Shown: piece after piece, positions 42,062-62,200 of the stretch
How the letters are laid out: every line of letters begins with the position of its first letter
How positions within the stretch are numbered: position 1 is the first letter of the stretch
Assembly (NCBI GenBank): GCA_010015585.1
Contig: ML975154.1
Reading direction: 5' to 3' (one strand)
DNA length: 62,200 nucleotides
DNA from: Eremomyces bilateralis CBS 781.70
Taxonomy: Eukaryota
Notes under the pieces: model-generated
What the model was told of the DNA's origin: nothing
Databases searched by the model: none
The model's input: the letters and a program-made list of their open reading frames with translations, nothing else
Made by a program: the position numbers and the translations under genes

Positions 42062-45000
42062 TCATACTGGCTTTTCCCCGTGCTTTTGCTCTACCACCTG
42101 CAAGTCATGGCATGGGTGCATGTCCTCGGCAGTAACATTACACATAAGACACAAATCGAAGTCGTTGCATACAGTACAGTGAAAGCGGGGACCATATATA
42201 TCCTGCCTTGCAGTTAGAAGAGTCTTCTGGTTCCTGACTGGACTTACATGGAAACAGCAGTTACACCAAAAGGAATCATCACCACGAACACCTTTCGTCG
42301 CCATTGCTAATGTCGAATTAGAACTGGACTGCGCAATGAGAGACGAAGATTCGGTTGTTCCCAACACTGCGGACAGTGACGCTTCCGTCCCAGGTTCAAA
42401 ATTGGGGTTCCTGTGGAACAGAGCCATAGAAACCGGGCTCCATATTCCTGGAGGGCGTACGGTATGAACCAATGTTTCATAACCACCATTCTTAATCAGA
42501 AGCTTGACGACATCCAGGTCGCCGGTTCTGCAGGCCCAATGCAATGGGCTCCATTTGTTTGCATCCGGAACCTTGATGGGATCGAGTTCCAACACCCTCT
42601 GGATGACCTCTATCGAACCACTAGAACAAGCATAGTAGATTGTGCTATTGCCCGCGAGGTCAACATCGCTGCAACGGAGCCCTTGGCCTAGCAGATAATT
42701 TACGCAGTGGACGTTCCCACCGCGAGCCGCCACATGAATCGGCGTGCGTCCCATTCGATCCCTAATGGTGATATCAGCCCCGTAGGTTTCCACTAGAGTC
42801 TGAAGCACTGTAAGATAGCCTTTAAATGCTGCAGCGTGTACAGCGGTACCATAATTATCGCAAGTGGCGTTGATATCGAGAAGGGGCTGGAGCGAAGAGT
42901 CGATAGGCGGAACTTTTTGGCCAGCTAGAGATCGGCCTGATGAATTGCGCGGTACAGTCTCCGGTGGGACCGTGGAACGATGTCTGATACCGAAGAGAAG
43001 GTTCACAATTTGGATATTCCCAGAAAGCGCTGAAGAATGTAATAGACTCTGTCGATTTTTGGTTAGAGTATTCGCTTCCGCTCCGCGGTCGAGCAGCAGC
43101 CGGACCACTTCGATGTGGCCGCTATCAGCTGCTGCGTTTATAGGCGTCCATCCGTCCTTGTTTGGAGTGTTGGCATCTGCTCCGCGGTCGAGCAGCAGAC
43201 GGACCACTTCGATGTGACCACGGTTCGCGGCTGAGTTCACAGGCGTCCATCCGTTACTGTTTGGNNNNNNNNNNCGCGGCTGAGTTCACAGGCGTCCATC
43301 CGTTACTGTTTGGAGCATTGGCATCTGCTCCGCGGTCGAGCAGCAGACGGACCACTTCGATGTGACCACTGTTCGCGGCTATGTTTACAGGCATCCATCC
43401 ATCGTTGTTTGGAGTATTGGCGTCTGCTTTGCGGTCGAGCAGCAGCCGGACCACTTCGATGTGACCACGGTTCGCGGCTAAGTTTACAGGCGTCCATCCG
43501 TTACTGTTTGGAGCATTGGCATCTGCTCCNNNNNNNNNNTTCGATGTGACCACGGTTCGCGGCTAAGTTTACAGGCGTCCATCCGTTACTGTTTGGAGCA
43601 TTGGCATCTGCTCCGCGGTCGAGCAGCAGCCGGACTACATCGATGTGGCCGCTATTAGCTGCTGCGTTTATAGGCGTCCATCCGTCCTTGTTTGGAGTGC
43701 TGGCGTCTGCTCCGCGGTCGAGCAGCAGACGGACCACTTCGATGTGACCACTGTTCGCGGCTAAGTTTACAGGCATCCATCCATCGTTGTTTGGAGTATT
43801 GGCGTCTGCTTCGCGGTCGAGCAGCAGCCGGACCACTTCGATGTGACCATGGTTCGCGGCTAATTTTACAGGCGTCCATCCGTTACTGTCTGGAGCATTG
43901 GCATCTGCTCCGCGGTCGAGCAGCAGCCGGACCACTTCGATGTGGCCGCTATCGGCTGCTGCGTTTATAGGCGTCCATCCGTCGCTGTTTGGAATATTGG
44001 CGTCTACTCCTCGGTCAAGCAGTAGCCGGACTACGTCGATGTGGCCGCTATCAGCTGCTGCATTTATAGACATCCATCCGTCGTTGTTTGGAGTATTGGC
44101 GTCTGCTCCACGGTCGAGCAGCAGCCGGACCACTTCGATGTGGCCGCTACCAGCTGCTGCATTCATTGCTGTGACCCCGTACTTGTTTGTAGTTCCGATC
44201 TCCGATCCTGCCACCAACAGAAAACTGACGACGTCCTTGAAACCTTTCTTCGCTGCTGTATAGAGCGCTGTCCGTCCCATAGAGTCTTTGAGTTCGAGCT
44301 TGGCGCCGTTGCTGGTTAAGGCTATGACCATATCCTCGAAACCTCCAGCTGCAGCAGCAACAAGAGCCGCACCAAACTCGCCTCCTTCAACATTCACGTC
44401 TGCACCCCATCTCATCAGCATCTCGAATGCCTTGTTGTTGTGCTTTGCGCAAGCCGCCTGTAGAGGGGTGCCATATCGACCACCCAAAACATTCAGTTGC
44501 GTCTTATCTTGGTTCCAGATGGATTCCAGTGTCATAAGAAGATTGAATAACGTGGCATAGTATATTGGGGTTCCAGCTACTTTCTCTTCGCCATCCTCAG
44601 CATTTCGGCAAGACTCAAAGTACTTTGCCCACCTGCTGAACTTCGAATTTCCAGTATGTAAGAAGTCGGTCACGATCCGTGACGCCCAAGGATCCTCTTT
44701 TACTACGTTTTCAAGGTGCAGTTGCCAAAACCTTGAAGCATAGTCAAGAAATGAATATCCACTGACATAGCTTTGATTATTATCTGAATCATTCCAGATG
44801 TTGTTGTAATTCAAATATGTCAGGCAAACGGCCGAAAGATAACGATGCTGATCAGCCGGATTTGCTGCGCACTCAGTTGTGGATGCTTCATCTGAGAGCA
44901 TTTGCCGATGCTTTGGCAGAACCGATAGGAGAAACTCTCTGACTGATGGATGAACGAGGTGGATGGTTTTGGAGGCGGACTGATCCTCGGAATTTGCTCT

Positions 45001-47290
45001 CCTGACTTCCACCAAAGAGCCGCAGATGGCTATAATCTCGTTTTCGATATACTTCTCGTCGATGTCGTCGGGGAGTTCATCTAACGGTAAACTGCTACAC
45101 TTGGCGTAAGTGTTAACAGCTAGGACTTCCGAAATCTCGGATACGGACAGTGGCCGTAAGGAAAATGTTGTCCAGCGCAAGATTGCAAATGCACGGTCTT
45201 GGTCATCTGCGGGCTGACGTTTGATGTCTTCCCAGTTCTTCTTGTACGTTTCAGTAAGTCCAATTGGCATGTTCTCAACGATATTTTCTAGTTTCGTCTT
45301 GCTTTTAGTGTCGCGCAGCTGTGGCTGCTGCATCTTGATCCACTGGAACATTCCCTCACATTTCTGAGTGAGTTTATCTGCCAGCCTCACTCGAAGGTTC
45401 TCATCCTTTCTTGGTAGCGTTTTATCCACCACAGATCTGGAGTAGAGTTTGAGATCGTCGTCGACATCTTTCTTCGTAATCTTGTATTTAAGAATGACTT
45501 GCTCTGATGATTTGACCGTTGACAACTCTACTTTAATATCAGTTTCTTCCCGGCTGGTTATGAGAATTCTCGTTGCGGTGCCGGCAGCCACGCTCTTGAG
45601 CTTTTGCAAGAAACTGACACGAGCGTCGTCTGTTTTGGAGTACTCGTCGAGCCCGTCAAGGAAAAGAGCGACACCCTGCTTCTGTGCCAGGACAGCTTCA
45701 AAAGCAGACCAGACCTCAGAGTCCAACGCTCTGGCTCCAACATCAGAGCGCTTGGCGTAGCCCCAGATCAGTTCGAGGGTGTCAGGATCTGGAGCTGCTA
45801 ACTGTGCCATCCAAGACCGAATGATGAAGCTCATATCGCCTGTCGGAGCTGATGCGGTGTGAAGTGAGGAGAAGAAGAAAGCCACCAACCACTCATGCTT
45901 AGCCTTAAAACGTTCAAGTATTTTGGCGCAAAGGACGGTTTTGCCAAACCCAGCAGGCCCACATACCCACAGTAGTCTAGGTGCATCGCTGCCGGAATCA
46001 TCAGAATCCCAGGCAAGGTATTCAGGTTTGTGAAAGATCCAGTTGCATGTGCCATGAAGGTACAATGACAACTGCTTATCATATTGCTGATGCATGTTGT
46101 ATAGTCGGTTGAAGTTTGTCATATCCAGCCAGTCGATGGTAGCCGCCATCGCTTGCTCCCTGGCTTTACGTCGCGCATTATCAAAGTACAATTGGATACT
46201 GCGCTGGAAGTTTGGGGACGCGGATCGGCCTCGTGTAGGTTGGTCTATTGAAAAGGTCATGAGCGTCATTTTCAGTACATCGCGGACTCTACATACCACC
46301 AGCGGGATTTATCAAGATTGTGCCTGGTCGGATGGGGTATGGCCCAATGTTGATTAGCTCTGCGATGTTATAGGATGCGTGGACTCCAGACTCCCTCCTG
46401 CCAATCAGTGCCGTCGGCGTATCCCAAGGCAGCGTTCCATTATCGATAACCTCTGCATCGCGATCAGAAGGAGCGGTCATTAATTCGCTGTAGGCAGGGC
46501 CCCATTGATGCGTAGAAGCGAAATTGGCCTGTAAGTTGAGCTGAGTATTGCTTGTGCGTTTGTAGATCTTCTCCTTCAGCCGACGCAATGCATGTTCAGC
46601 TCCTTCCCCATAATGAGGCGACATGAATATGTTGAATATGCCCAATAAAGAGTAAGCCTTGTCCTCTTCGCGCTTGGTCTCGCGGTTATCGGCCCACGAA
46701 AAGCGCTCATCGATGCTGAACTCGGAAAGACCATGCCCTTGTAGAGCTTCGATTTTGATCTTTGTTATCTCGTGAAGTTGGCGTTCCAATGACTGCTTGT
46801 CACCGAGGTGTTGCCCTTCTGAGGAGAAGAATTCGACCGACGTCGGTGCAATGAGCTCTTGGAGCGTCCAACCACGAGTAAACCATCTGCTTCTCCGAAA
46901 GGCAGGTTCCCAGAAGGATTGATCCATTTGGTCATAAGTATTCATCGAGACGTCTTCCAGATACACGTAACACTTGATCGCATTACGGTACCAGTGAAAC
47001 ATGGATGTAATAGCCTCTGAAAGCTCTGCAGAGCTCGATTTATCAATACAGCAAGTATCCACCCAGATGTGCTGGAGGCCATCGCGAATGGCTTGCTTAG
47101 CACAGAACCGAATCTTACTGTATCCAACCTTTGCCTGCCCAAGGCCTTCGGTCATATCTCCAAAGGTGACTTCCTCCTCCTCATCATCATCTCTCCAGGT
47201 GTGCGAAAGTATCGCATATCTGGGGATATTCCTATGCAGATCTTTGGTCAGGCTGAACTCGCCACTTTCCGAAACTCTTAAGAGACGCAT
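42062..47290 (-). CDS. Fungal NLR: HET effector - NACHT - ankyrin array - ZZ-type zinc finger; two introns and two 10-N gaps
   Basis: HET motifs YAILSHTW, WVDTCCIDK and WFTRGWTLQEL. NACHT motifs GTCNWI, GPAGFGKT, FLDGLDE and ITSR. Many ankyrin repeats follow. The C-terminus reads CNCCFH|DIYGPRFHCTVCNDFDLCLMC…HP.H. Confidence 0.9.
43065..44170 (-). repeat. Array of about 11-12 near-identical 99-bp ankyrin-coding repeats
   Basis: Recurrent GHI[E/D]VVRLLLDR.ADAN.PN..GW unit with near DNA identity. Assembly gaps fall inside the array. Confidence 0.92.
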
Positions 47291-48199
47291 TACGAAGATT
47301 GAAAGCGAACACTGAGAGTTTATAGAGAAAAACGTTCAAATTTTCAAAAAGAATATCCTATGCAAAATTGTCCTGATTGACAATGCATCGTAAGGGTCGA
47401 GATTAGGGAAGTTGAGAATCTGTGAGTTGAGAAGTGGGGCCTCCTTCAGAAATCAGTGAGGGGCATGACCGCATGAGGCTCCCCGATTTATTAATATCTC
47501 GATGCCTACGGAGTATCCGTGCCCTTGGACCCACCCACCACCTCAGTACGGGCCCTACGGGGGCAGTGCTCTGAGAAGCAAAGCAAAGCTGTGGCTGAGT
47601 TTCAAACTTGCACGTGCACGGAATTTACACAGAGAGATATTGGGACGGAGATGCCCTACGTACCTGCCTATAGCCCGGCCATTATCGAGGGCCTCAGTTT
47701 TGCCGATCAGCGACATGAGAGGATATTCGAAGCGCACCCTTAGGAAGGCCGTGATACATACCTCAGGTGCAGCAGCAGAAGACGTGCACTGCGCTGTCGT
47801 GTCGAACTGTCGATTACCGGTAGTCAAGACACGCTCACTTTACTGGTGTTTGCAGAATGAAACCATTTCTAACTATATACTTAGATTATTCTTAAATATT
47901 GCCGCCGCATTATCCGCCTTTTAAAGTACTGATTTGAATTGCAAATAATTCTGCACGCCCGCGAAGTCCAACTGTACGCGTCCACGTCACCGCGGGTGGA
48001 AACATTGATGGAGAAGAGTTCTCTATTGATGGCTAAGTACAGTGGCGATGAGAGAGACGCACGCGTCGCGCGTGCAGGTCGCAGGTGTTGAGCGTAGTAT
48101 CGCCATACCACCAACACCAGCACGACTGTGTCTACTGCCTCCGCTTAGACACGGTGTCCTTTCATCAAGGGAGGCCTCTTGAGGGATACAAAGGGATAC

Positions 48200-49935
48200 G
48201 AAAACCATCCGATAGGGGTCTATCTAGCTCGCAGCTGGATCCGGAAGCCTAACTTATCATTAGGTGGATGAGGACGCGTCCTAGGCCTCTAACAGGACAC
48301 CCTCAGGCTCGCCTACTCTGGGGTTACGCGTGAGCAACGAGCTGCGCGTAGCGAGGCCTTGGAACAATCCTAATTCTAAAGAACTTGTTAAGGCTAACTT
48401 GTATAAATCTAGGCGAACTCTGTTAAGGCCGGAGGGCCTCTTCGCAACGGGAGCGCTTGTTAAGGCCCCTCTATCGGAACCTGTTAATACCACAACGACA
48501 CGAGCTTACCGGGCGTAACAAGCACGACAGCTTACGGAACTGGAGTCACAGGCCAGTCGATAGAGGAGAAACACAGGTATGCTCCTGGTGGAGGCTTGAT
48601 GGAGACACAGACCCGTCGCGTGGATCTATACAATGGGAGAATCACGGGCCAACTTAAGATGATGGAGGACACGAGCTTGGTTAGTAGGATAAGGCTGCTT
48701 GCGTTGCCCGGAGCGGAACGAATGCGTACTGCCTTATCCTGCAAGACACGGTCGGCCAATCAGAGGGAGACCTCTATGGGCAACGCGAAACGGCTACTGT
48801 TTACAGTAGTCGCGGGGCGTAGTGCGTGGTAGCCACTGCTGGCTCCAAGGACCTCATCCCTTCAATGGGCTCTGACCCTTGGTGAATCTGAAAGCAGACG
48901 GGATCAAACCCCGGCCGGAGAGACTACCATGTGGCTCGAGAGAACGGATGCGCGTGTCGGTATACAGAGAGACAGGACCAGTCGCTAGGCTGGAACGCTG
49001 ATGATGTATGCTTAAGGAGCATACAGGCGTTACACAGGCAGAGACCCTTTTGGTTCGGGGGCGACTGTGGACGAGCGAAGTGCAGATGGCACAGCTCAGA
49101 AAACTGTGGCAGGAGTCTGGATAGGCAGACTGGTGAAACCTGCGATTGTATACAAACACAATATAATGTCCTGTCCCCCGGCCCGAACCAGTTAGGGGAT
49201 ATCAGACACAACAGCGAAAAGGCCCGCACCGGATGATTCAGGACGAGTATCGAGCGAAATGGAGGGAGAGATGGCAAGCCGAAGCGGCCAGACCAGGAAG
49301 GAGAGCAAGGACATGGAAGGACCCGTGGGAAACCCAGTGCCTTAACCGGTTCAATGGCCTTCAGAAACACGAGGCCTCGGCGCTTATGGCACTACGGACT
49401 GAGGTAGTTGGAGTTAAAGGATGGCCTGCGAAAATCGGTGTCCCGGGAATCCACCCAGCGTGTGAGTGCGGTGCCCCCCGACAGTCTCTCTACCATCTCC
49501 TTGCGTTTTGCCCGCAGCGGACCTACCAGAGGATCGCGCTCCTCCAACGAGCTGGAACAACGGACTTTAAGAGGATATTGCATGACAGGGACAAGGTGCG
49601 CCACGCAGCAAGGTGGCTGATCGATGCGGGAGGCCTAGAGCAATACCGGGTGGCCAAGGAAGTTGAGAAGGAAGTAATAGAGGACTGGAAACCGTTCCAG
49701 CTCCTCCACGACGTGCCAGAATAAGCTCTCCGCGTCGGCGGAAACACCGACCCGTGCGGAAAGATGAACAATGATTGAGATACTCTACTAAGGGGAGGAG
49801 GCGGGATTTTACGTACCTGCAGCCTCGGCTGGGGGGAAACTTTTGCCCGCGACAGACCAGATAGAATATCGTGCTCATAGACCCGAAAGGGATCCAGATA
49901 GTACGTTAAATTGATTCTTATTATTAATAATCTAA
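48200..49935 (+). mobile_element. Degenerate non-LTR retrotransposon (Tad1-like LINE) relic; 5' limit uncertain
   Basis: 49233-49724 encodes a LINE ORF2-type C-terminus (W…W, LRT, CECG…QSLYHLLAFCP, AARWLI..G.L.QY). There is a possible RT 'ADD' remnant near 48995 and an AT-rich 3' tail. Confidence 0.65.
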
Positions 49936-50057
49936 TAAGCAACTGTATTGCTACTCGCGTGATAAAGTACTTCGCTGGTCTCACCTTGTGTGCGCTGACA
50001 TAAATACTCCTGAAAGTAAGAATAGAATGAGTCGGAGAATATCTGAAGACAAGGTCT

Positions 50058-51188
50058 CTAGTTTCGGGACTGTGATTGAAATAGCGGTACTATCGTTTCG
50101 AAATCGAGGTTCGCCTCAGGATGCTCTTTTTTAACATGCTGTACCAACGATTTCTTTGAAAAGTATCCACCAACTCGACTACATCCATTAATAGGACAAG
50201 GGTATGGAGACTCGTCATGTATATGCCTCATATGCCTGGCATATTCTGAAGAAGTATTGAATGCATGCCCTTTAAAGTCTGGATGGAGTCGATCTAGGCG
50301 GAATTCCTTACAATCCATATGATGGCAGGAATATCCTACACTAGTGACGCCAATCCCATGGAAACTGCGTAAATGTGACTCTAGATGGTCTTTCCGCTTG
50401 AAGGCGTTTACGCCACTGTAACGGTTGCAGTGAAGGCATGGAAAGCGAGGCGCATCACTCCTATGATCGAGCAGGTGTCGAGACAGAGTGTCTATCCGAG
50501 CATAAGACTTCTGACACCCTTTAAAACCACATCGACAGATCTTGTGTGATGTTTCTTGGGCATGGATATTTGACAGGACTAAGGAGTCAAAGTTTTTCCT
50601 GCATTCAGAGCACGTTCTGCCACAGGAACTTGACTTCAGGTGTTCCAAGAATTCTGATGAGCTCTTGATATCGTTTTGGCAAATTGGACATATATAGATG
50701 TGTTCTCCGATGTTTTGGCTGAGTTAGGGTGTCAGAATCTACTACTGATAAATACCCTTCTAGTCCTGAACTTACCTTGACTCAATTCCTGTTGTACTAG
50801 GCGGGAAAACCTCAGCATCGCTATCATAGGCGGCATCACCAGGCTGAATATGAGATGCCGACGCCAGCGTCTTGCCGTCTGGCGAGAACGCCACGGCCCC
50901 GACGGTCTCCGAATGGCCCTTGAGCGTCTTCAGCGCCGCTCCCGGGAGGAATAACGATTCATGGCTGGTCCTCGGAATTTGTAAGATTGATGGATTACCA
51001 TACATCCATTCCGGTTGAGTCTGGCCTCGACCATTTTGAAATGAGTCTGACGACTGGGCCGGTCTGTAGTGGGTTGTTGTCTGGGGAGATTCATATTCTG
51101 GATTTGAGAGGTTCGTCCAGCTACCCGAAGGATTTGTGACAATATCAGACCGGATGAATCTCGGTAAACTGTTTTGCTCCGAGTTCAA
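50058..51188 (-). pseudogene. Out-of-frame continuation of the kinase gene: linker, one HET-E-type WD40 repeat, intron, about six C2H2 fingers
   Basis: TLKGHSETVGAVAFSPDGKTLASAS. A GTAAGT…CTAAC.CAG intron splices in frame to YICPIC…H, CSEC…H, CGFKGC…H, FPCLHC…H and YPCPINGC…H. Confidence 0.65.
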
Positions 51189-52246
51189 CCTAGCTCTTCA
51201 AGGGTTATGCGCTGTGACTCTATCCAGCGATGTTCAAGGCACTGGGTTGTAGTCATTCGCATATTAGGGCGCATCCCTATGAGATTACAGATAAATTCCT
51301 CCCCATCGCCTCTAGCAGATGACGGAAGTTGATCCGATGGGAAGGGCCGCTTTTGTTGATAGTATTCCATTAATTCCCACTCGGACTTAAATGTGGCATT
51401 GCCAGTCAGCATACGAAAGGCGATTTCTCCCAAAGCCCACATATCTGCCGCCTTAAAGTCAGAGATATGCTTAGGTTTAGTAAGATCAGGGAATCCGAGT
51501 AGCTCCGGCGCCATATACCCTTTCGTGCCTTGGATCGTAGTAGTAGGTGCGTTACTCTCCTCGTCTCGTTTACTGATACCGAAGTCAGCGAGTACTACCC
51601 ACCACTTCCCCTCCGGCGGTTTTAATTTGATAAGGATGTTCTAGCGATGTTACTAAATAATTGCTTAACATTTATATCGTACTTACTCCGGGCTTTAAAT
51701 CCCTGTGCGCAAATTCATTCTTATGCATATGATCAAGGCCTTCGAGTATTTGACGCGTCACTTGTTGAGCTTCTACCGCGAGCAGGGAACGTTGGTTGAA
51801 GAGGTAGTGATGAAGGTCACCATAATGGCAATATTCCATAGTAATGAAGATTGAGCTCAAATCTTCATACCATCCGAACGACTTTACGAACCAATGTTCA
51901 TACTATAATACTAATATCAGCTTACGTTAATATATCTCGAAGTAATTTAACTCACTCGTTTATGAGAAAATTTTGCAATCGCTTCTAACTCTCTGTTGAA
52001 ATTCGGGGACTTGTTGATGACCTTCACCGCGCGGAGAGCATCCTGCTTTGCACCGGTGGTAACACATATCTGCAGCAGAACCGCTCCAAATCGTCCGTAT
52101 CCAAAGTTTCTATCCCATTTCCAGTATTCTTTTCGGTAGGATCGAGAGCCTGCTTCGTCGATATCGTGAACTGCATGGATGGTTGCGGAATTGCTAAACT
52201 CCGTAATAAGTTTGGAGTCCGACACGAGATCTGGTGTTCGAGGCAT
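51185..52246 (-). CDS. Ser/Thr protein kinase domain, 3 exons
   Basis: GYGRFGAV, AVKVI, RELE, MEYC, HRDLKPG|NIL, DFG, GYMAPE and DMWALG are all present. Confidence 0.88.
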
Positions 52247-52829
52247 TATTCGAACCTATAATATTGTTAGCCGCGAAATAATAACTATATCGAAAGTTAA
52301 ACCGAGACTGACTGTGTGGTATCCTTCGGATACATAGCTTTGTTGGCCGATGAAGCTCACCTCGAATACTCTGCAAAGACCGAGACACTGAAAGACGAAG
52401 AAGTCCAAGAATGTTCCGATGCAAGTCTCTGGGGTAATATGGTCTCTGAGAATCGAGGGGAATAACAAAGTACACCGCCATCTCTACCTATATCGCATTG
52501 CTCTCAGCTGACGCATTCGATTGGCTGGATGTGAGGTAGCACAGTAGGGGGCGAAGCTCCGGCTGTGCTGGGCATACTATGTACTATGTTTTGGACTGAG
52601 AGTCCGCCATGGACTGGGACAAGTCGTGTTGCAAGATGCCCTGTTGGTTTCTACAGCCACCTAACATTCCTTCACTGCCCTCTACCCCTGGGCTAGGCCT
52701 AATCAGGACTCTTCAGTCTTCTCCATGTAATTAAGTTATCTTCATCCGGCTTAGTTACTAGCTAGATCTCCTTTTCTAGACAATGGGAATCTTTAATAAC
52801 TACCAATTCGCGTTAGTTAACTAAGTTAG

Positions 52830-54465
52830 TTATGACTCTACAGTAACTGAGCTTAAGCAGCGACCGTGCTTAATCATCATCCCCGCGAAATGCGACAGTT
52901 GCATCAACGGGCATTGCATCAATGATGACGTCGCTATTCGAAATCGGCGACTCGGTAATAGTAATATTGCCGCCCAGCGCCTGTGCATCTTGTACCTTGC
53001 GAGAGTACCGGTCCAATAGGTTGCGCTGTCCTGTCTTATGGACCTAAAGAGCTTGGACATCTCGTCTCTCAAGAAGCTTTTTAAACTCTTCTTCACTCAG
53101 GTGGCATAGGGCAAAGGGATCCGCCGTAGATGATAAGTCCGCCAGGAGAGAGAAAAGGGCATCTTCAGGAGGTGCGAGCACACCCAGCATAACCCGCGCT
53201 AGATTCTGAGACACATAATCCGGGAAATAATACTCCTGTTGAGTATTCGATTTGTGCATAAGCATCCAATGCCCAAGCAACTCGCCGAGAATTCTAATAA
53301 TTTTGCCCCCGGAACCGACTCGCATAGAGTAGGGGATCGGAGGATTCTCCATGCCGGCGACTTCGCACCAGCGATACCATATCCTATAGAACTGCGACCC
53401 GCTGATATCGACGAATGGGAAATCGTCCAGGCCTTGTGCCCAAGGAAGGAAAAGGACTTTGCAACCTCGAAGGTTGGGCCGGGTCAAAACTTGATCAAAG
53501 GACGTATATCCGGCCCGGAAGCACGCCGTGCTAGAGCGCGGCCAATGATGTGACTCGCAAGACAGACCAGTCGGCATGGCAAAATGGCCACGGCAAACTC
53601 GCGCCCGGGGCTCGCAGGCTTTATGGAAGCCACTCGCAGTTTGTTTTCTGGCATTCGGATTCGTACGAACGCGTTCGTTTTCCCGCCAACGTTGACGAGT
53701 CCTATCCTGACTTCTGCATACTTCAGGTTTCTAGGACAGTCGATCCGGAATCCGCCAATAGCTATATAGAGCACGATCATGGCGAAGTCGCTAAGTTGCG
53801 CCGTAGAGTGGAGGATATCGCTATAACGATTCAGGAGAGCCTACATGATGACTACTCTATCCTGAGCAGTCGTAGCCCGCTTTTGGCGCTTGAGTGCGTT
53901 AGAGATACCGGTAAGGAAAGGAAGGTCGTGGACAATCCACTACAGGGACGTTAGTATCCTTCTCCGCACAAATAGAGGGCAGACCTCACATTGGAAACCA
54001 CCCACACGGGCCCTGAAATAAGTTTTCCACTTGGATTGACGAGCCTCTATTGCCTCGCGGTTTGCCTGTTCTCTCTTCTTTTGGGTGTAAGGACTGCTTC
54101 GTCCCCTTCCTGCACAAGCGCTCTCCACACTATCAGGACGGTGGATACTCGATTCACCTGTCGGACCTCCTCGTATTCTTGATCTCCTAACGCAACCCCG
54201 GAGACCGAAGAGTCGGAGACATAGGTCTGGAGAAAGGCACGACATGTATCCTGAGCCAAGGCTACCTCCACTGGTGAAGAGCTGCAAAGGGATAACCAGG
54301 TGTTTCGTACTACTTGAAGAGCCACATCGCGTAGCCGCGCTTGTATGTAGTTCTGTCCGACACTGGGACCGTATCGTCGAGGGGCTTGTTCTGGAAGCTA
54401 GCTAGACGCTCCTTTGCCTCTTGTTCTCCGGCTTCGCCCTTTCGAATAGTGCGTCGTGGCACCAT
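52830..54465 (-). pseudogene. DUF3435-type tyrosine recombinase (Starship captain), copy A, with frameshifts and stops
   Basis: Fragments give CRAFLQTYV, IGGFRID (catalytic R), CLASHIIGRALA..AF..GY.SF, PYSMRVG, MLMHKS..QEYYF (H and Y) and TADP.A…L, in the order expected for this family. Confidence 0.8.
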
Positions 54466-54774
54466 AGTCAAAGACGTATCTTGGAATAGACGTCGAGAAT
54501 TTTGGCTGCGTGTAGCATTGATAGCGTCGACTACCTCCGAACCCGATGGAACTGGAACTGAAGAAGAGTACTGTAGAACTGCAAACGGAGCTCCTGACCG
54601 AGGGCGAGACTGTAGAAACTGCGAACAGGACTCATGACTGAGAGCGAGACGGGAAATCTAGGGAGAATGGGCATCTTTACGATCCTTACCAGAGTGCATT
54701 TTCGACGGGCCCTCGTCTTTCGGCGGTATTGACCCTCTGTTTTCGACCTCGTTTATATCGCTGGGAGACCATAG

Positions 54775-54796
54775 GGGAACTCCTATTGCTGCATGT
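54775..54796 (+). rRNA. 3' fragment of a 5S rRNA gene (from GGGAACTC to the end) followed by an oligo-T terminator
   Basis: GGGAACTCCTATTGCTGCATGT+TTTT. It overlaps the GGGAACTCCT end of the next copy, and its GCTGCATGT can pair with the 5' ACATACGGC (helix I). Confidence 0.8.
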
Positions 54797-54884
54797 TTTT
54801 ATTTTTATGACCATTATGTCAAGTTTTTCAGTGGGCGGATTGGATTTATGGTCGTTTATGATGTAAAAAACTTCAATTTCTAGC

Positions 54885-54991
54885 ACATACGGCCACATCA
54901 ACCTGAATATAGGGCATCCCGTCCGCTCTGCCGTACTCAAGCAGGTTAGAGATAGAATAGTACTACGGTGGGTGACCACGTGGGAACTCCT
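54885..54991 (+). rRNA. 5S rRNA gene; last ~12 nt fall in the assembly gap, predicted length 119 nt
   Basis: ACATACGGCCA…GGGCATCCCGTCCGCTCTGCCGTACTCAAGC…TAGTACTACGGTGGGTGACCACGTGGGAACTCCT matches the Pezizomycotina 5S pattern. Confidence 0.92.
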
Positions 54992-55276
54992 NNNNNNNNN
55001 NNNNNNNNNNNNNNNNNNNNNNNNNNNNNNNNNNNNNNNNNNNNNNNNNNNNNNNNNNNNNNNNNNNNNNNNNNNNNNNNNNNNNNNNNNNNNNNNNNNN
55101 NNNNNNNNNNNNNNNNNNNNNNNNNNNNNNNNNNNNNNNNNNNNNNNNNNNNNNNNNNNNNNNNNNNNNNNNNNNNNNNNNNNNNNNNNNNNNNNNNNNN
55201 NNNNNNNNNNNNNNNNNNNNNNNNNNNNNNNNNNNNNNNNNNNNNNNNNNNNNNNNNNNNNNNNNNNNNNNNNNNN

Positions 55277-55369
55277 ATCAACCTGAATATAGGGCATCCC
55301 GTCCGCTCTGCCGTACTCAAGCAGGTTAGAGATGGAATAGTACTACGGTGGGTGACCACGTGGGAACTC
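55277..55369 (+). rRNA. 5S rRNA gene copy truncated immediately after GGGAACTC
   Basis: Identical to the previous copy except one base (GATGG vs GATAG). It switches to non-5S sequence (ATCCGCCATAG…) at 55370. Confidence 0.88.
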
Positions 55370-55753
55370 ATCCGCCATAGTACTATCCGGCTCGCCTGCC
55401 ATTGGCCGGGTGCGTTACCATACATACTTAGTCAACGCGTCGTTAGAGGGAGATGGCTGATCGGCGGCCTTGGCCATTGCTCAGCCCGTCACTTCGACCT
55501 CCGACTACATCCCCTTTTTCCTCCTCCCAACTTCCTGAAGTTGGACACGTGGCGTCTTCTCACTGCGCTGTCTGCTTTCCTTGCACGTCATCAGTTACTG
55601 TTCGTCCCCAGGTCCATTTCTCTATGCTTTTATTTGGGCCGAATGTTTTCCCTTGCTTTGGTGGTTCCCGCTCCGCCTGAAGTGGGCTTTCCATGCAATT
55701 AATTCTGAAGTGCAATAGAGTTTTACGATATGCTTGATATTTTTTACAACTAA

Positions 55754-57404
55754 AATGACCGGCTAACCACCAACGGCCAGGTCTGTCCGTGGTCCATATG
55801 GGATAAGATCGACACCGAACTGGACGAAGACTGCGAGAATTTGCAGGACAAGTTTCCTTACGACGATTGTGTCACGATAGCTCTTGCATTTGTTCAATTA
55901 CGCGATGCGGAGCTTAATAAGAGGATCAAAGCCAAGGCGGCATAACTTGCATCATCAAGGGATTTAAGAACCTGATTGAATCGCTAGACGAAGATGAGGA
56001 TGTCGACGAATCACAGGACTAAGTCGAAGAGGAGCAGCGGGACGAAGGCCTTGCTGTACGCGATCGTTCGGAGAGTCTTCCGCCTCTAAATGACGCTACA
56101 GAAAAGGGAATCCGGGATCAAGTGTCACCATCCGTTGAACCGGAACTACTAAGGGTCGAGATGGAAGTGGAAGAGTCTGGCGATCGGACAAGAAACGCGA
56201 GAGTCAGCGCATCTCCAGCTCCAAGGCTTCATCCCACTCCTTCACCTGCCAGGGGCCATCATGCTCGCTTGTCCTCTGCCAGGAGTCTTCGGCCTACGGT
56301 GTCTCCTGAAAGGTGCCAAGCCACTTCTGTTCCTCCAGCAAGAGATCAACAAGACGACCGCTCTCCATCAAAGGGTATCTCCACCCAGGACTTCGCTCTG
56401 CGTGCCGCCCGAAGCGTAGCTGTCCCCCCGATAGCGAGAAAGAAATCCAACCTCGCAAATTCAACCCGGCGCCTCCTGCATCAAGTTCGACGAGTCCCAA
56501 ATCCAGCCAACTCAAGGTGCTGATCAGGCTCCACCCGGGCCGTCCAGCATACTTGAATTGTCAGTCGTTTGGAGGTGTTTTGGAAAGCTAATTGATCGGA
56601 GCCCCAAGCCTCGGCCATGAGCCCAGTGCAACCCGCGTTCCCTCCCTCAGTCATTCCTTCTTCTGCTCTTCTTCTGCTCTTCTTCTGCTCCTGAATGTGT
56701 CCGCGTCAACTGCAAGTTTCCGACTTTCTTCGCCGACGATGCCTTATGCCACGTCAGCAACCACACCAGCATCAGTTCCGGATTAGAGAACGCGCGTTCA
56801 CAAACCGGCGAAGGTGGTTGAATGGTTGGCCAGCCTCACCGTTGCGCCTCATCGTCATGATCGTATGATCATGATGGTGTCAGCCTGGCCCGCCATTCCA
56901 CTTACAGGGCGCGGCCATTACTATTCCGGTGTCCAAAGGGAAGGCGACGGTGACGCCTAGATGGCTTTCCAGGGTCACTCTGATGTTGATTGGCGATGCG
57001 TTCCCGAGGCAGTCAGGACTGTAACCAGCTGAACTTGCCTGCGACATGGACTAGTGACTGCGATGATGGCAAATTTGCCGCCGACCTTTTCAAGTTCACC
57101 TCGGTAAAGGCCAAGGGGGCGGCCGTTAGGGCCGTTGTGTCCCCAGACATCAGAGTCGTGGACCCTGCCGGATCTGATGGCGAGAAAGACCATGGTTCAG
57201 CGCAACAACTGGGCGAGTTCACCGATCTGCCAGGAGCGTAGACTCGACTCATGGCAGCGCGAACAGACGAAAGGGAATCCGCTGGCCATGTCGTATGATT
57301 CTACGCAGAGCTGCGATCAAGTAGCTCGACGGGTTCAAGGCTCGGAACAAGCGAGGACGGGCCATGAAAATGGCGAAGGGTTCAAGGATGAGATAGTGAA
57401 GTGA
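55754..57404 (+). pseudogene. Decayed ORF(s) of unknown family: acidic helical N-terminus and low-complexity middle
   Basis: Coding-like stretches such as WDKIDTELDEDCENLQDKFPYDDCVTIALAFVQLRDAEL are broken by stops and frameshifts. Confidence 0.4.
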
Positions 57405-57890
57405 GCGATAGTGGATCAGCTACCGGCCTGGCTCATGTCTCAGCGTCGAAGCTGCATGACTGCATTTTAATTTTGTTGTCCCTTCCGCTGCTCTCATATT
57501 CATCGCGATGGCAAAGTGATATACCCCTTCTTTGGAACCCCGAGTCTTATATCAACTGAGTGTGTTCCATTAGGCCTCGCACTCTTCCGGGGCGTAGTCA
57601 GACCATAAATTTGCTTCCATATCTTGGCATGGCTTCTCACGCCAAGACATGCTGAGCGAGGCTTAGCCCATCAACCTTGCAATTTCCTTCAGAAGTGGGA
57701 GAAGAGTCTGCACAAACAACAGTGAAGCCAAGATAAGCCAGGACCAGTTGTTGGTGGCCCTCAGACCTTGCGGGATATTGGTAATAGGTGGCATAAATGC
57801 TCCCCTCCTTATCCTCTTTTTATCACGCCCCTTTGTCTTCTTCGTATATCCAACCGCCTGTTTGATTTCTTTCGCCCAGCGTCCCTCATC

Positions 57891-58057
57891 ATGGGCTATA
57901 CATCTAGACAGTCGCGCATAACGAAACCACATCGTCAGCCAAGCAAACAACGAAAAGCCAGGTTCAATTTCCCATCATTACCTCCTGAACTCCAAGAGCA
58001 GATAGTCTCTGCTTCACTTCGCGATGGAATACTATCGGATTGGGAAGAGGGCCCCTT
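57891..58057 (+). pseudogene. Truncated F-box-like gene
   Basis: MGYTS…RFNFPSLPPELQEQIV, cut off where the retrotransposon relic begins. Confidence 0.4.
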
Positions 58058-59237
58058 TTATTCAACCTCTTTTATACTTAGTAGCTTTATAATGTCCTCG
58101 CCGTATACATTTACCGTAGGCCCTTGCGCGCGTCGATGCGCAAGGGCGCCTAGTTTCCCGAGTCTAATAGGACTTCGTGTGAGTCGCTGTCGGTAGGCTG
58201 CGCGGCTATAGCAGTGACTTGAGCTCTTGGGCGTGCCGCAGGTCGAAACTCGCATACGCTCGGGTTATGCTTAGGCTTCTTGCAACGCCCACATTTGCCC
58301 GCTTGTAGTAGTGCTGAGAACTCCGCTTGGGGTCGCTATTTTGCCCTAGGGCGCTTGTCTTCCTTCGTATTGCTAAGCGCGTCGAAACGAGCCGCTAGCG
58401 CTGCTATTTGAACTGATAGCGCGTTTACATCGGTCATCTTAACGTCGCCCTCCGCGTCGGTACCGCTCGCCTAAGGAGAGTATGATCCCTTATGAACCGG
58501 CGATCTATATAAGCCTTCGTTGACATAATAGTACGTTATAGACCCAGTCTGCTTATAAAAGTCTACGTGGGCTTCGAAGTTCGTCGCGATCGCCTAGACC
58601 CTCGTGACGTATGCGTCGTAATCGGTATTCGATAGTTCCACCGGAATGAGTGTCCTAGCCAGCGATGTGTTCAATGACCTCCTTATAATAGAGATCTTCG
58701 AGGCTCCTCTGTGACTAAGAGAGCCGGCCTGGGCTAAGAGTTGCTCAAATTGTTGTCTAAAGTCTTCGAACTTCTGCTTATCGCCTTGTCTCAGCCGATC
58801 TAGCTTATCTAGCGCCTTCCTTTCCTCTTCTCTATCTAGGAACTTACTATCTATATATTCTAGGAACTCCTCTGGTGCGTAGGACCCGCTATTATCTTCT
58901 TCTTATAGCCAGTAGATCACTCGCTACTGTTTCTCTTTTGGGAGACCGGTAAAGATGTTCGTATATATAGCCTTGTTGCTTCCTAAACGTCCTTACTCTT
59001 GCTCGATCTTAGACTCGATCGTCCACTTAAACAGGCTATAGCCGTCCTTAGTACTATCCCATTCTGGCCATCGTATAGCTCTCGAGGGGGTGTCGCGGTC
59101 TCTGTTCGCAGTGGTAAGGGCGGTGACAAGCGTGTTCAAAAGGTCGGTCGTGCTTTCCTTAGGCATATCGATTTCAATGCTTGCGAAGCCTTTAGTGATC
59201 TCTTCGAGAGATACTTCTAACCTAGGAGTATAGGTAG
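58058..59237 (-). mobile_element. Ty3/gypsy-type gag relic, heavily RIP-like mutated
   Basis: KALDKLDRLRQGDKQKFEDFRQQFEQLL (Retrotrans_gag-like), DAEGDVKM, zinc knuckle CGRCKKPKHNPSVC and terminal SGN. It has many TAG/TAA stops and a TpA excess. Confidence 0.8.
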
Positions 59238-59239
59238 TA

Positions 59240-61191
59240 CTCGTGCCAGGCTTCCCCCCCCTCCAGGGTGGGTGCGCCACAGATCAACGCAAACCACACA
59301 ACAACGCAAAATCTGTAAATTCAACTCAAATAGTTAATTATCTCAACACCAACATGCCTCCTGAGGAAGATGATCAAGAGAGTCGAATCCTTGCAGCTGT
59401 CACCGAGTACCGACGTGGTGAAAATAAAAATATCACGTCGTTACACAACGAGTATCGCGTTCCTTACTACGCCCTTCGATCACGTATCAATGGCAAGCCG
59501 TCGAAGAAAGCTCCAAAGCCTGCCAACCGAATACTTGATAAAGCACAGGAGGATGCAGTTAAACACTGGATCAAACAGCTTGACGAAGCTGGCCGCCCGC
59601 CGACTGCTGAAATGGTGACAAATTGCGCCAATGCCATCCTCTCTCGAAACCACGCAAACCCAGAAACCCCACCTCCAACAGTCTCAAAAATGTGGACGTA
59701 CCGCTTCCTTAAACGCCTTCCACCCGAATATAAGCGCATTAAACAGCGTCCAATGGATCCTAAGCGTATACAGGCTGAAGATATTGGGATAGTGCAGACT
59801 TTTTATGATCGCTGGGAGATTGCTATCAAAAGCCATCACATCCGCCCATGCAACATCTACAACATGGATGAGACAGGCTTCCAGATTGGCCAGGGAAAGG
59901 TTGAGAAGGTTATAACTGCTTTTCCTGAAGCAAATGCAAACATCGGAAGTGCCATGACACGGAAATTGGTCACTGTCATTGAATGTATCTCTGCTGAAGG
60001 CAAACCAACTAACCCCTTTCTTGTTCTGGCAGGCTCATACCATCTGGAGGATTGGTATAAGGATTGTGGGCTTCCAGACAACTGGATGATCACCCTTACA
60101 CCTAATGGGTATATCACTGATGAAGGAGGATATGATTGGATTCATCATTTCGATATAGAGACGCGCCCAGCTATATCTTCTGAATACCGGCTCCTCTTAC
60201 TTGACAACCATGGTTCACACCTGACATACGACTTCCTCAAATTCTGTGAGGACCGCCGAATTATTCCTTACTTCCTTCCACCACACATGACACACCATTT
60301 ACAACCTCTGGATGGAATCCCTTTTCAGCAGTACAAGCACTGGCATGCAAAGGCTGTCAATGAGGCTGCACGCCTGGGTGATGAGAGCTTCAACCATCGG
60401 CAGTTCCTTTCGGCTCTACCTGCAATAAGGGAGAAAGCCTTCACCCCACGAGTTCTCCGCGCCGGCTGGACAAGACGAAGAGTATGGCCAATTAAGCCTG
60501 AGCTTGTTATTAAAGAGTTGGAAAAGTTATGTGCAGATGATGGCCCTGTGCTTGAGTTTTTGGACGGCGAACCCGAACGTGAAAAGACCCCCTCTATATC
60601 TTCCTCCCAACTTTCCTCGCCAAAGAATGTACAAAAACTCCGACACAGTATTGAGAAGGTGAAGAAAAACCTTGCGGATATAGAGGATGTCCTTGGCGAA
60701 GTCTCGCCGTCGCTTAATAAAAAGATAAACAAGATTTTCAATGGCAGTTTACTGCAAGCAGAGCTCGGCGCGCAACAAGGCAGCGACTTAGATCGCTATT
60801 TAGATGCCAGCCACAATCGCAAACGAAAAACAACTCGTCGACGTGTTAATGCAGGAGGTCCTTTTTATGTTAAGGATGCAAATCGCCGGATTGACGAGCG
60901 GAAGGCTACGGAAATGAGGGAGGAGTGGGAGAAGCGTGAGCGACGCCGGGCGCGCGATACGAAGAAAAGGCAACGTGAGCTCACAGAGGAGGCTCGCAGG
61001 GGAGAAATAAATGGTGAAACAGCTGCTACAGCTACTGGGGATCAAGAAAATATCCCTTATTTTATAGATACTCAACCGTGGTAGAATAAATTGATTGTTT
61101 TGTTGCTTGATTTACTCGATTTTGCGTTGATCTGTGGTTTGCGTTGTTCTGTGGCGCACCCACCCTGGAGGGGGGGGAAGCCTGGCACGAG
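59240..61191 (+). mobile_element. pogo/Fot1-type DNA transposon, 1952 bp, with ~55-bp TIRs and TA on both sides
   Basis: CTCGTGCCAGGCTTCCCCCCC…GGGTGCGCCACAGA..AACGCAAACCACA at the left end and its reverse complement at the right end. TA at 59238-59239 and 61192-61193. Confidence 0.95.
59354..61084 (+). CDS. pogo/Fot1 DD35D transposase, intact, 576 aa
   Basis: HTH-psq/CENP-B-like N-terminus, then YNMDETGF and LLDNHGSH…(35 aa)…LQPLD. Confidence 0.95.
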   Translation: MPPEEDDQESRILAAVTEYRRGENKNITSLHNEYRVPYYALRSRINGKPSKKAPKPANRILDKAQEDAVKHWIKQLDEAGRPPTAEMVTNCANAILSRNHANPETPPPTVSKMWTYRFLKRLPPEYKRIKQRPMDPKRIQAEDIGIVQTFYDRWEIAIKSHHIRPCNIYNMDETGFQIGQGKVEKVITAFPEANANIGSAMTRKLVTVIECISAEGKPTNPFLVLAGSYHLEDWYKDCGLPDNWMITLTPNGYITDEGGYDWIHHFDIETRPAISSEYRLLLLDNHGSHLTYDFLKFCEDRRIIPYFLPPHMTHHLQPLDGIPFQQYKHWHAKAVNEAARLGDESFNHRQFLSALPAIREKAFTPRVLRAGWTRRRVWPIKPELVIKELEKLCADDGPVLEFLDGEPEREKTPSISSSQLSSPKNVQKLRHSIEKVKKNLADIEDVLGEVSPSLNKKINKIFNGSLLQAELGAQQGSDLDRYLDASHNRKRKTTRRRVNAGGPFYVKDANRRIDERKATEMREEWEKRERRRARDTKKRQRELTEEARRGEINGETAATATGDQENIPYFIDTQPW

Positions 61192-62200
61192 TAGAACTGC
61201 GACCCGCTGATATATATCGATGAATGGGGAATTGTCCAGGCCCTGTGCCCAAGGAAGAAAAAAGGATTTTGCAACCTCGAAGGTTGGGCCTGGTCAAAAC
61301 TTCATCAAAGGACGTATATCTGGCCCTGAAAGCACGCTGTGCTAGAGCGCGGCCAATGATGTGACTAGCAAGGCAGACCAGTCGGTATGGCAAAATGGCC
61401 ACGGCAAACTCGCACGCAGGGCTCACAGGCTTCAGGGAAGCTACTCGCAGTTTGTTTTCTGCCATTCGGATTCGTACGAACACGTTCGTTTTCCCCCCAA
61501 CGTTGGCGAGTCCTATCCTGACGTCTATATATTTCAAGTTTCTAGGACATTCAGTCCAGAATCCGCCAATTGCCATATAGAGCATGATCATGGCGAAATC
61601 GCTAAGTTATGCCGTAGAGTGGAGGATATCGCGGTGTCGATTCAGGAGAGCCTGCATAATGACTACTATATCCTGAGCACTCGCGGCCCACTTTCGGCGC
61701 TTAAGTTCGTTAAAGATACCGGTAAGCAAAGGAAGGTCGTGGACAATCCACTACAGAGACGTTAGTATCCTTCTCCGTACAAATAGAGAGCAGACCTCAT
61801 ATTAGAAATCTCCCACACGGGTCCTGAAATCAGTTTTCCACTTGGATTAGCGAGCCCCCATTGCCTCGCAGTGTGCCTATTCTCTCTTCTTTTAGGTGTA
61901 AGAACTGCTTAGTCTCCTTCCTGCACAAGAGCTCTCCACAAAGTAAGGACGGTTAATACTCGATTAACCTGTCGGACCTCGTCGGATTCTTGATCTCCCA
62001 ACGCAACCCGAGAGACCCAAGAGTCGGAGACATAGGTCTAGAGAAAGGCACAACATGTATCCTAGGCCAAGGCTACCTCCACTGGTGAAGAGCTGCAAAG
62101 GGATAACCAGCTCCCAGGTATCGTCCGGCTCGCGGTGTAGGACGTCGCAAACGTATCTAGAGGATGTGAGTGTAGGTCATAGGCATGATAAGTCCAGGTG
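61192..62200 (-). pseudogene. DUF3435 tyrosine recombinase (captain) copy B; C-terminal part missing, N-terminus beyond the window
   Basis: 61192-62110 aligns colinearly with about 53386-54299 of copy A. Differences in the stretch compared are mostly transitions. Confidence 0.85.

Follow-up and report, generated by a model that had tools for sequence, protein, structure and literature searches.

Starships are fungal mobile elements that carry a DUF3435 tyrosine recombinase, the captain, and some of them insert into 5S rRNA genes. 5S holds 23% of 222 curated Starship insertion sites; Arwing, which is family 9 in Table 1 of Gluck-Thaler & Vogan (2024; PMC11162782), is named there as one of the families linked most strongly to 5S rDNA, whose direct repeats measure 6-16 bp; and a locus with six to eight 5S genes is a Starship hotspot in Aspergillus fumigatus (PMC12153272). 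Extra captain domains have already been suggested in published work to guide site choice. Here, we describe a 62,200-nucleotide stretch of the Eremomyces bilateralis CBS 781.70 genome (contig ML975154.1 of assembly GCA_010015585.1), referred to below, at its full length, as the window. Near its right end, 5S rRNA genes are interrupted twice at the same 8-bp core, close to two captain pseudogenes. The locus probably preserves decayed Starship-type relics of the Arwing lineage (published family 9), left by captain-driven, site- and orientation-specific insertion into 5S at the core GGGAACTC.

The supplement of PMC11162782 lists Eremomyces bilateralis with a tyrCount of 15 and an elementCount of 0, and enters the gene model of one of our two captains (513402) as a recombinase fragment. 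No paper on Starships in this species was found in the literature. Among the direct repeat and terminal inverted repeat (TIR) entries in the accessible part of the supplement to Table S10, none contains GGGAAC, GGAACT or their complements, except for two TIR entries with gttccc; the insertion position at issue, 98-105 within 5S, was likewise not found on record there. The readable 5S repeats in Table S1 of the same source sit elsewhere in the 5S gene than 98-105.

Organization of the 5S rRNA locus

The 5S genes were called with Rfam model RF00001 at its gathering score of 38, followed by a permissive rerun up to E<=10 over the 62.2-kb window. Two matches, both on the plus strand, exceed the gathering score: 54885-55004 at 51.3 bits and 55277-55373 at 51.0 bits. 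No further 5S appears in the window, even at E<=10. The features of the locus are given from left to right.

52641-52897, no strand assigned: long terminal repeat (LTR)-like repeat of 257 bp, TG…CA, high-copy; adjoins and truncates captain A
52903-54465, minus: captain A, a pseudogene of a DUF3435 tyrosine recombinase that covers residues 1-526 of a 793-residue paralogue (tblastn)
54466-54774, minus: the 309-bp end of element A next to the captain; its final ~70 bp (54698/54708-54774) form an apparently separate conserved module
54775-54796, plus: 5S 3' fragment, positions 98-119, 22 nt, GGGAACTCCTATTGCTGCATGT, followed by a T-run
54797-54884, plus: spacer of 88 bp, with a few further occurrences in the genome
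54885-54991, plus: 5S copy 2, positions 1-107 readable (…GGGAACTCCT), RF00001 51.3 bits
54992-55276, no strand: scaffold gap, 285 N
55277-55369, plus: 5S copy 3, positions 13-105, RF00001 51.0 bits, ending at the core GGGAACTC
55370-55446, plus: putative, unproven distal end of another insertion; agrees with the 5S 3' end at only 3 of 14 positions
55447-58057, no strand assigned: unassigned single-copy DNA, cargo or host
58058-59237, minus: retrotransposon gag fragment, with PF03732 Retrotrans_gag at 58594-58902 (E=1.5e-5)
59238-61193, plus: pogo/Tc5-type transposon, 1956 bp, with an open frame of 616 codons, inserted in captain B
61213-62200, minus: part of captain B (residues 53-347, at 62155 down to 61213), interrupted by four in-frame stops and leaving the window on the right

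The core GGGAACTC occupies model positions 98-105 in both copies 2 and 3. Copy 3 leaves 5S directly past 55369, where ATCCGCCATAG… stands in place of CTATTGC… and 3 of 14 positions agree with the 5S 3' end. On the left, the 3' fragment opens with the same core at 54775-54782. Copy 3 therefore ends at position 105 and the 3' fragment starts at position 98, so that both broken copies keep the 8-mer. These breaks, and the captains lying on one strand relative to 5S, speak for site-specific insertion. The agreement in strand is as published strand-specific insertion would predict.

At 22 nt, the 3' fragment is below scorable length and was identified from its letters alone; we regard it as a true 5S 3' end because like 3' ends are present in 4 metagenome 5S genes and at loose ends of contigs from sequencing run X4. 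The locus itself was found in runs X1 and X2, which come from one sample, and all records are contigs. Runs X3 and X4 match in short pieces at low share only, those of X4 being short 5S-like and repeat pieces. A metagenome scan with a 16-mer of 5S returned 118 loci, 4 of which are 5S genes; all 4 have normal 3' ends, and no broken copy is among them.

The original prediction, made from the sequence before any search, had described a tandem 5S cluster split twice at this core. Its 3' fragment beginning with GGGAACTC at 54775, its 88-bp spacer and its breaks at 5S positions 98-105 in both outer copies all hold, as does the exact stop of copy 3 at 55369. Its "complete 5S" at 54885 does not: this copy is readable to position 107 only, the final 12 positions of the Rfam match are N, and the 3' end lies inside the gap. 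The tandem arrangement stands for the 3' fragment and copy 2, which share one contig. Copy 3, which opens at position 13 directly after the gap and is 99% identical to copy 2 (1 difference in 93 nt), joins them across 285 N. Because copies 2 and 3 are linked solely by this join, the wider tandem cluster depends on the scaffolding.

The 8-mer is not rare. Its count in the window is 4 where 2.36 are expected, and at least 4 matches occur in 21 of 100 shuffles; the fourth match, at 26655, considered in the search for a 5S remnant at the far end of element A, is within chance. For a gene of 119 nt, we estimate that a pair of randomly placed breaks shows an overlap of 4-16 nt in about 1 of 10 cases. 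The weight of the case lies in the context, namely the captain beside the junction and the shared orientation, and not in the 8-mer.

The captain pseudogenes

Captain A is covered by four tblastn pieces with 79-91% identity to an intact, 793-residue protein of the same genome, P152DRAFT_347678 (P0001). The gene is broken by in-frame stops, a frame change near 53520-53577 and an internal gap of 12 residues; no trace of residues 527-793 was found in the window by tblastn with P0001. Its 228-residue minus-strand frame at 53044-53730 matches Pfam DUF3435 (PF11917) at E=3.4e-7, which confirms the earlier assignment of these open reading frame fragments to the DUF3435 tyrosine recombinases. The intact paralogue, the closest database relative of this frame, matches DUF3435 at E=5.7e-16. 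Gene model 510855 is a further intact paralogue. Captain A encodes the gene model P152DRAFT_513402 (P0002), with 96-100% identity per exon. We measured 309 bp between its start codon and the point where element A meets the 5S 3' fragment, close to the 310 bp first proposed for this minus-strand gene, which reads away from the junction. Captain A ends at the LTR-like repeat, beyond which single-copy DNA follows, and the interior of element A is thus lost; about 1.9 kb of the element remains (52903-54774).

Captain B is 82-93% identical to P0001 (tblastn) and 89.1% identical to captain A over 919 nt, with transitions making up 63 of the 94 substitutions. It does lie on the minus strand beyond foreign DNA, as had been predicted, and comprises residues 53-347 only. 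Captains A and B are dead tyrosine-recombinase (DUF3435) captain pseudogenes. Their proposed assignment to Arwing is drawn from published tables for the paralogue, which is fam09 in Table S4 of PMC11162782; captains A and B are placed through their 79-93% identity to it.

In an alignment of 25 sequences (A1), R233, Y372 and R375 show no variation, and K268 and Y406 reach >=90% conservation. The catalytic Arg/Lys/Tyr roles of these five residues are predictions. Captain A retains the corresponding stretches. The predicted structure of P0001 has a mean pLDDT of 72.6, and the best PDB matches in Foldseek are XerH (5jjv_A, E=4.2e-3), Cre (1crx_A, E=7e-3, TM by target 0.51) and lambda integrase (1z1b_A, E=6e-2), with top-match probabilities of 0.98-1.00. 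A PDB sequence profile search with P0001 matched only its C-terminal C2H2 zinc fingers (CTCF, E=2.3e-5), a part that is absent from captain A. The captain clade carries two conserved C2H2-type finger pairs in this C-terminal region (P0001 residues ~560-710; profile positions 605-756 in alignment A1). A likeness to TFIIIA in the fold search (rank 47, E=0.42, probability 0.14) was set aside as generic zinc fingers only. The nearest full-length relatives outside the species are 31-34% identical and come from Colletotrichum and Gaeumannomyces; a search of metagenomes with P0001 alone returned no relatives.

The captain-proximal end and its junction with 5S

The letters of the window are carried at a contig depth of 279.3 at both 54758 and 54792, and therefore a single-copy contig very likely bridges the junction between element A and the 5S 3' fragment; the captain-proximal junction of one insertion, as originally proposed, is borne out. 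Among the matches listed, contigs with another letter number 15 at 54758, 13 at 54697 and 9 at 54792. The many variants at 54697 and 54758 indicate multiple genomic copies of the end of element A. Set against 2-5 contigs with differing letters in the spacer at 54816-54865, also among the matches listed, the 15 at 54758 and 9 at 54792 suggest that several further copies of this end lead into a 5S 3' end that is followed by different DNA. Multi-copy ends that adjoin 5S are what repeated site-specific insertion predicts, and in this indirect manner the contigs suggest it.

The last ~70 bp of element A may form a separate conserved end module, as suggested by a contig joint from 54393 to 54698 and by two X4 contigs that match from 54708 onward only. 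Aligned in register with the 5S stretch that immediately precedes the core, the last 16 nt of this module agree at 11 positions (P=2.9e-4), and an extension to 21 nt agrees at 13 (P~3e-4); both values refer to one junction, with the extent picked after inspection. The end does not rebuild a 5S gene, in that 54678-54796 gave no Rfam match even at E<=10. The DNA fold of 54690-54800 (z=0.39) is not notable, and the sub-repeat CCTCKKYTTW of the end module, matched 5 times where 1.89 matches were expected, was discarded as a motif chosen post hoc.

Upstream of the captain A start, a 93-bp tandem duplication lies at 54541-54635; other genomic copies lack it, as seen in a contig joint from 54541 to 54635. 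The region 54098-54774, which spans the first ~120 codons and the upstream end, has 10-15 variant contigs against 2-4 in the captain body (among the matches listed) and a higher summed depth. The genome may hold many truncated copies that consist of the captain start and upstream end only. In addition, the hexamer CCATAG occurs in direct orientation on the element side of both junctions, at 54769-54774 (…GACCATAG before the core) and at 55376-55381 (within ATCCGCCATAG… after the core). CCATAG is also the direct repeat of one Fusarium Starship listed in the published Table S1; this sharing may be coincidence.

The break in copy 3 and the DNA up to captain B

The junction at 55369 and captain B are ~5.8 kb apart. 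Single-copy DNA, the gag fragment and the transposon lie between them, and therefore the link from 55369 to captain B is one that we infer. The 6.8 kb from 55370 to the end of the window include the 1.96-kb transposon and the gag fragment, and the remainder is without family matches. The earlier reading of 55369 as the distal junction of a second insertion, here linked to captain B, enters our account as a proposal.

Two contigs cover this interval exactly and at single-copy depth, one from X2 (55417-59227) and one from X1 (55654-58869). The start of the X2 contig at 55417 hints that the first ~50-75 nt past 55369 recur elsewhere in the genome. Local alignment of either flank to 5S does not rise above shuffles (55/300 and 32/300). 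On its reverse strand, the 55370 flank agrees with 5S positions 73-87 at 13 of 15 positions, a score reached by 9 of 300 shuffles, and we give it no weight.

Farther right, the interval 55447-58057 has no Pfam matches. The gag fragment contains an open reading frame at 58150-58335 with a zinc-knuckle-like CxxC...H...C motif, recognized by reading. The transposon that splits captain B has a DDE_1 domain (E=2.4e-18), an HTH_Tnp_Tc5 domain (E=9.2e-17) and inverted ends that measure 87 nt at 91% in one comparison and 76 nt at 96% in another. Its summed contig depth reaches ~8-10x the single-copy figure, so it may still be active. A 176-nt contig from run X3, which bears another organism label, is identical to 60235-60410 within it.

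Proposed mechanism

In the model that we favor, a DUF3435 captain would integrate its element into 5S rRNA genes site-specifically and in one orientation, with strand exchange inside GGGAACTC at 5S positions 98-105. Each insertion would leave the 8-mer on both sides, in the order 5S(1-105), element, 5S(98-119), with the captain ~0.3 kb inside the end that adjoins the 5S 3' piece. The break in copy 3 would then mark the far end of another, like-oriented insertion, probably the one that carried captain B; the captain side of this insertion is expected beyond the window, with ~0.3 kb past the captain start followed by GGGAACTCC and the 5S 3' end. Both copies are now dead, with stops and frameshifts in the captains, captain A cut by the LTR-like repeat, and captain B split by the pogo-type transposon next to the gag fragment.

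The 16-21 nt of element A that resemble 5S just 5' of the core suggest, in addition, a recombination site on the element that mimics the target, as attP mimics attB. Like arms bound by the recombinase in element and target would produce such an in-register likeness. The cut at positions 98-105 lies just 3' of what we take to be the 5S internal control region. The 5S 1-105 fragment could thus still be transcribed into the element, as far as a T-run at 55515, 145 nt on.

Alternative explanations

Several observations weigh against this model. The two ends of one element are not both in the window: the proximal junction of B would lie beyond 62200, and the distal junction of A is at no recognizable 5S in the window. 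Neither cargo nor large size is shown, with 1.9 kb left of A; loss by decay or an original lack of cargo would equally account for this. The flank at 55370 has no second copy within the window, is single-copy in the genome from 55417 onward, and, compared with the end of element A, gives no inverted match (297 of 300 shuffles reach the same score). In the window, tblastn places none of captain B residues 348-793 to the left of the transposon, and therefore the DNA from 55370 to captain B is not a simple element interior. Copies 2 and 3 are connected only through the scaffold gap, every Foldseek E-value for P0001 is >1e-3, and runs X1 and X2 are probably the assembly's own data and hence not independent.

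Two independent insertions are plausible, but one insertion followed by duplication, or a scaffold join, could give the same picture. The duplication alternative posits a tandem or segmental duplication of a unit made of the 5S 5' part, the element, the 5S 3' part, the spacer and the next 5S. It draws on the captains being 89.1% identical paralogues and on copies 2 and 3 differing at 1 of 93 positions. It would also accommodate the contigs with other letters at 54758, 54792 and 54816-54865, all of which end near 54900-54918, so that in a few other contigs the spacer and the start of the next 5S may recur along with the element end. The contig counts pull the other way, since 15 and 9 at the element end and 5S fragment against 2-5 that reach into the spacer (among the matches listed) fit differing downstream DNA; furthermore, the interiors beside A and B share nothing in the window, although later insertions or deletions could explain this. 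We regard such a duplication as rather unlikely.

It is also unlikely that only junction A was made by the recombinase, with the break of copy 3 at 105 due to a different mobile element or a deletion, or marking a truncated 5S pseudogene, and its 8-mer shared by coincidence. The estimated frequency of chance overlap is compatible with this, as are the lack of a relative of the 55370 flank in the window, its single-copy state from 55417, and a captain B that is not contiguous with it. What such a coincidence does not account for is an overlap exactly at the boundary of the other junction, 8 bp in length where 6-16 bp direct repeats are reported for 5S-targeting families, with a captain fragment of the same family and orientation 5.8 kb rightward. 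A scaffolding artefact, in which the contigs ending in copy 2 (54991) and starting in copy 3 (55277) are not neighbors and the junctions are real while the array hit twice is not, has in its favor that both contig ends lie inside repeated 5S, joined by 285 N alone, in a repeat-rich region near the scaffold end by published gene-model coordinates, but the 3' fragment and copy 2 stand in tandem 88 bp apart in one contig, so that at least a two-unit cluster is real, and we give the artefact little credence. Finally, a Crypton, a small recombinase-only element, was considered as no cargo was shown, and the recombinase tree of PMC11162782 uses CryptonF as the outgroup and places paralogue 347678 within the Starship families.

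Taken together, these are real relics of site-specific insertion, of a known kind of element in a known kind of target, and captain-driven insertion of Arwing-lineage Starships at GGGAACTC remains the reading that we consider probable. A more detailed version is tentative, and we would not lean on it: a divergent Arwing-clade captain, perhaps aided by its C2H2 fingers, would use an unrecorded 5S site at 98-105, 3' of the internal control region, through a mimic arm, and would have hit a mini-array twice independently.

Flanking DNA

The LTR-like TG…CA repeat that cuts captain A looks like a solo LTR from its very high depth and many loose ends. The bin 52577-53083 has a summed contig depth of 11468 against ~235-290 in single-copy bins, and loose contig ends fall at 52639, 52829, 52886 and 52897. 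To its left is single-copy DNA with a kinase-WD40 gene and a gene for a C2H2 protein. The former (50772-52255, minus) is single-copy and encodes a protein kinase domain followed by WD40 repeats; a depth peak at 50854-50929 corresponds to the WD40 repeat motif, which matches many other contigs.

Further left lie a high-copy retroelement fragment and a HET-NACHT-ankyrin gene, with housekeeping genes from ~40 kb leftward. The fragment, at 47507-50041, is a very high-copy repeat (summed depth up to ~61000 against ~250 for single-copy DNA) without a Pfam match; one frame with a terminal Cys/His-rich motif is taken for the 3' part of a non-LTR retrotransposon. The HET-NACHT-ankyrin gene (NLR-type; 42062-47335, minus) has 11 highly similar ankyrin repeats at 99-nt spacing, and both 10-N assembly gaps (43265 and 43530) lie inside this array.

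Relation to described systems

If correct, our reading adds a precisely delimited target core in 5S, 8 bp long at positions 98-105, together with a candidate end module of ~70 bp, and a captain lineage and fungal order without an annotated Starship gain a target and end pair. Such a short target and short end are a requirement of a transposition assay. The broader picture of Starship biology is unchanged: insertion into 5S, the use of several 5S sites and hotspots rich in 5S genes have all been published before, and the copies here are dead.

In phages and integrative elements, a tyrosine recombinase exchanges strands in a short core shared with a tRNA gene. The locus described here resembles tRNA-gene integration in its short core within a conserved RNA gene and, by our alignment, in an element side that appears to resemble the target beside the core. 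It differs in that the element A end does not rebuild 5S.

Among Starships, Voyager of Macrophomina phaseolina (PMC9156397) shares the DUF3435 captain, the fixed 5S position and the direct repeats. It belongs to family 10, however, and cuts 20 bp from the 5S 5' end with the direct repeat GCCCTGTATTCT; it is intact, ~91 kb long and polymorphic between isolates, whereas the copies here are relics without shown cargo. Starship-1 of Aspergillus niger is recorded in Table S1 as targeting 5S, in the region of its 3' end, with the direct repeat ACATACAACAGAAGG. By our reading, this repeat spans the last ~15 nt of 5S, directly downstream of the 8-mer, and it is therefore a neighboring site and not the same one.

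The idea of a 5S array as a multi-slot landing pad, which formed part of the original prediction, is already published for Aspergillus fumigatus. There, the Osiris Starships at the chromosome 3 hotspot likewise use clustered 5S genes as repeated sites, and their insertions fragment 5S (PMC12153272). That system was seen in many strains, with empty and filled sites and Enterprise-family captains, in contrast to the one genome, one gap and decayed copies here. A further comparison is with Arwing. The published Arwing core is CCCG/GGGC in either orientation, whereas here it is GGGAACTC at 98-105 in one orientation; the two agree in that the paralogue of captains A and B falls in fam09, in the strong reported association of the family with 5S, and in a captain placed at the element end.

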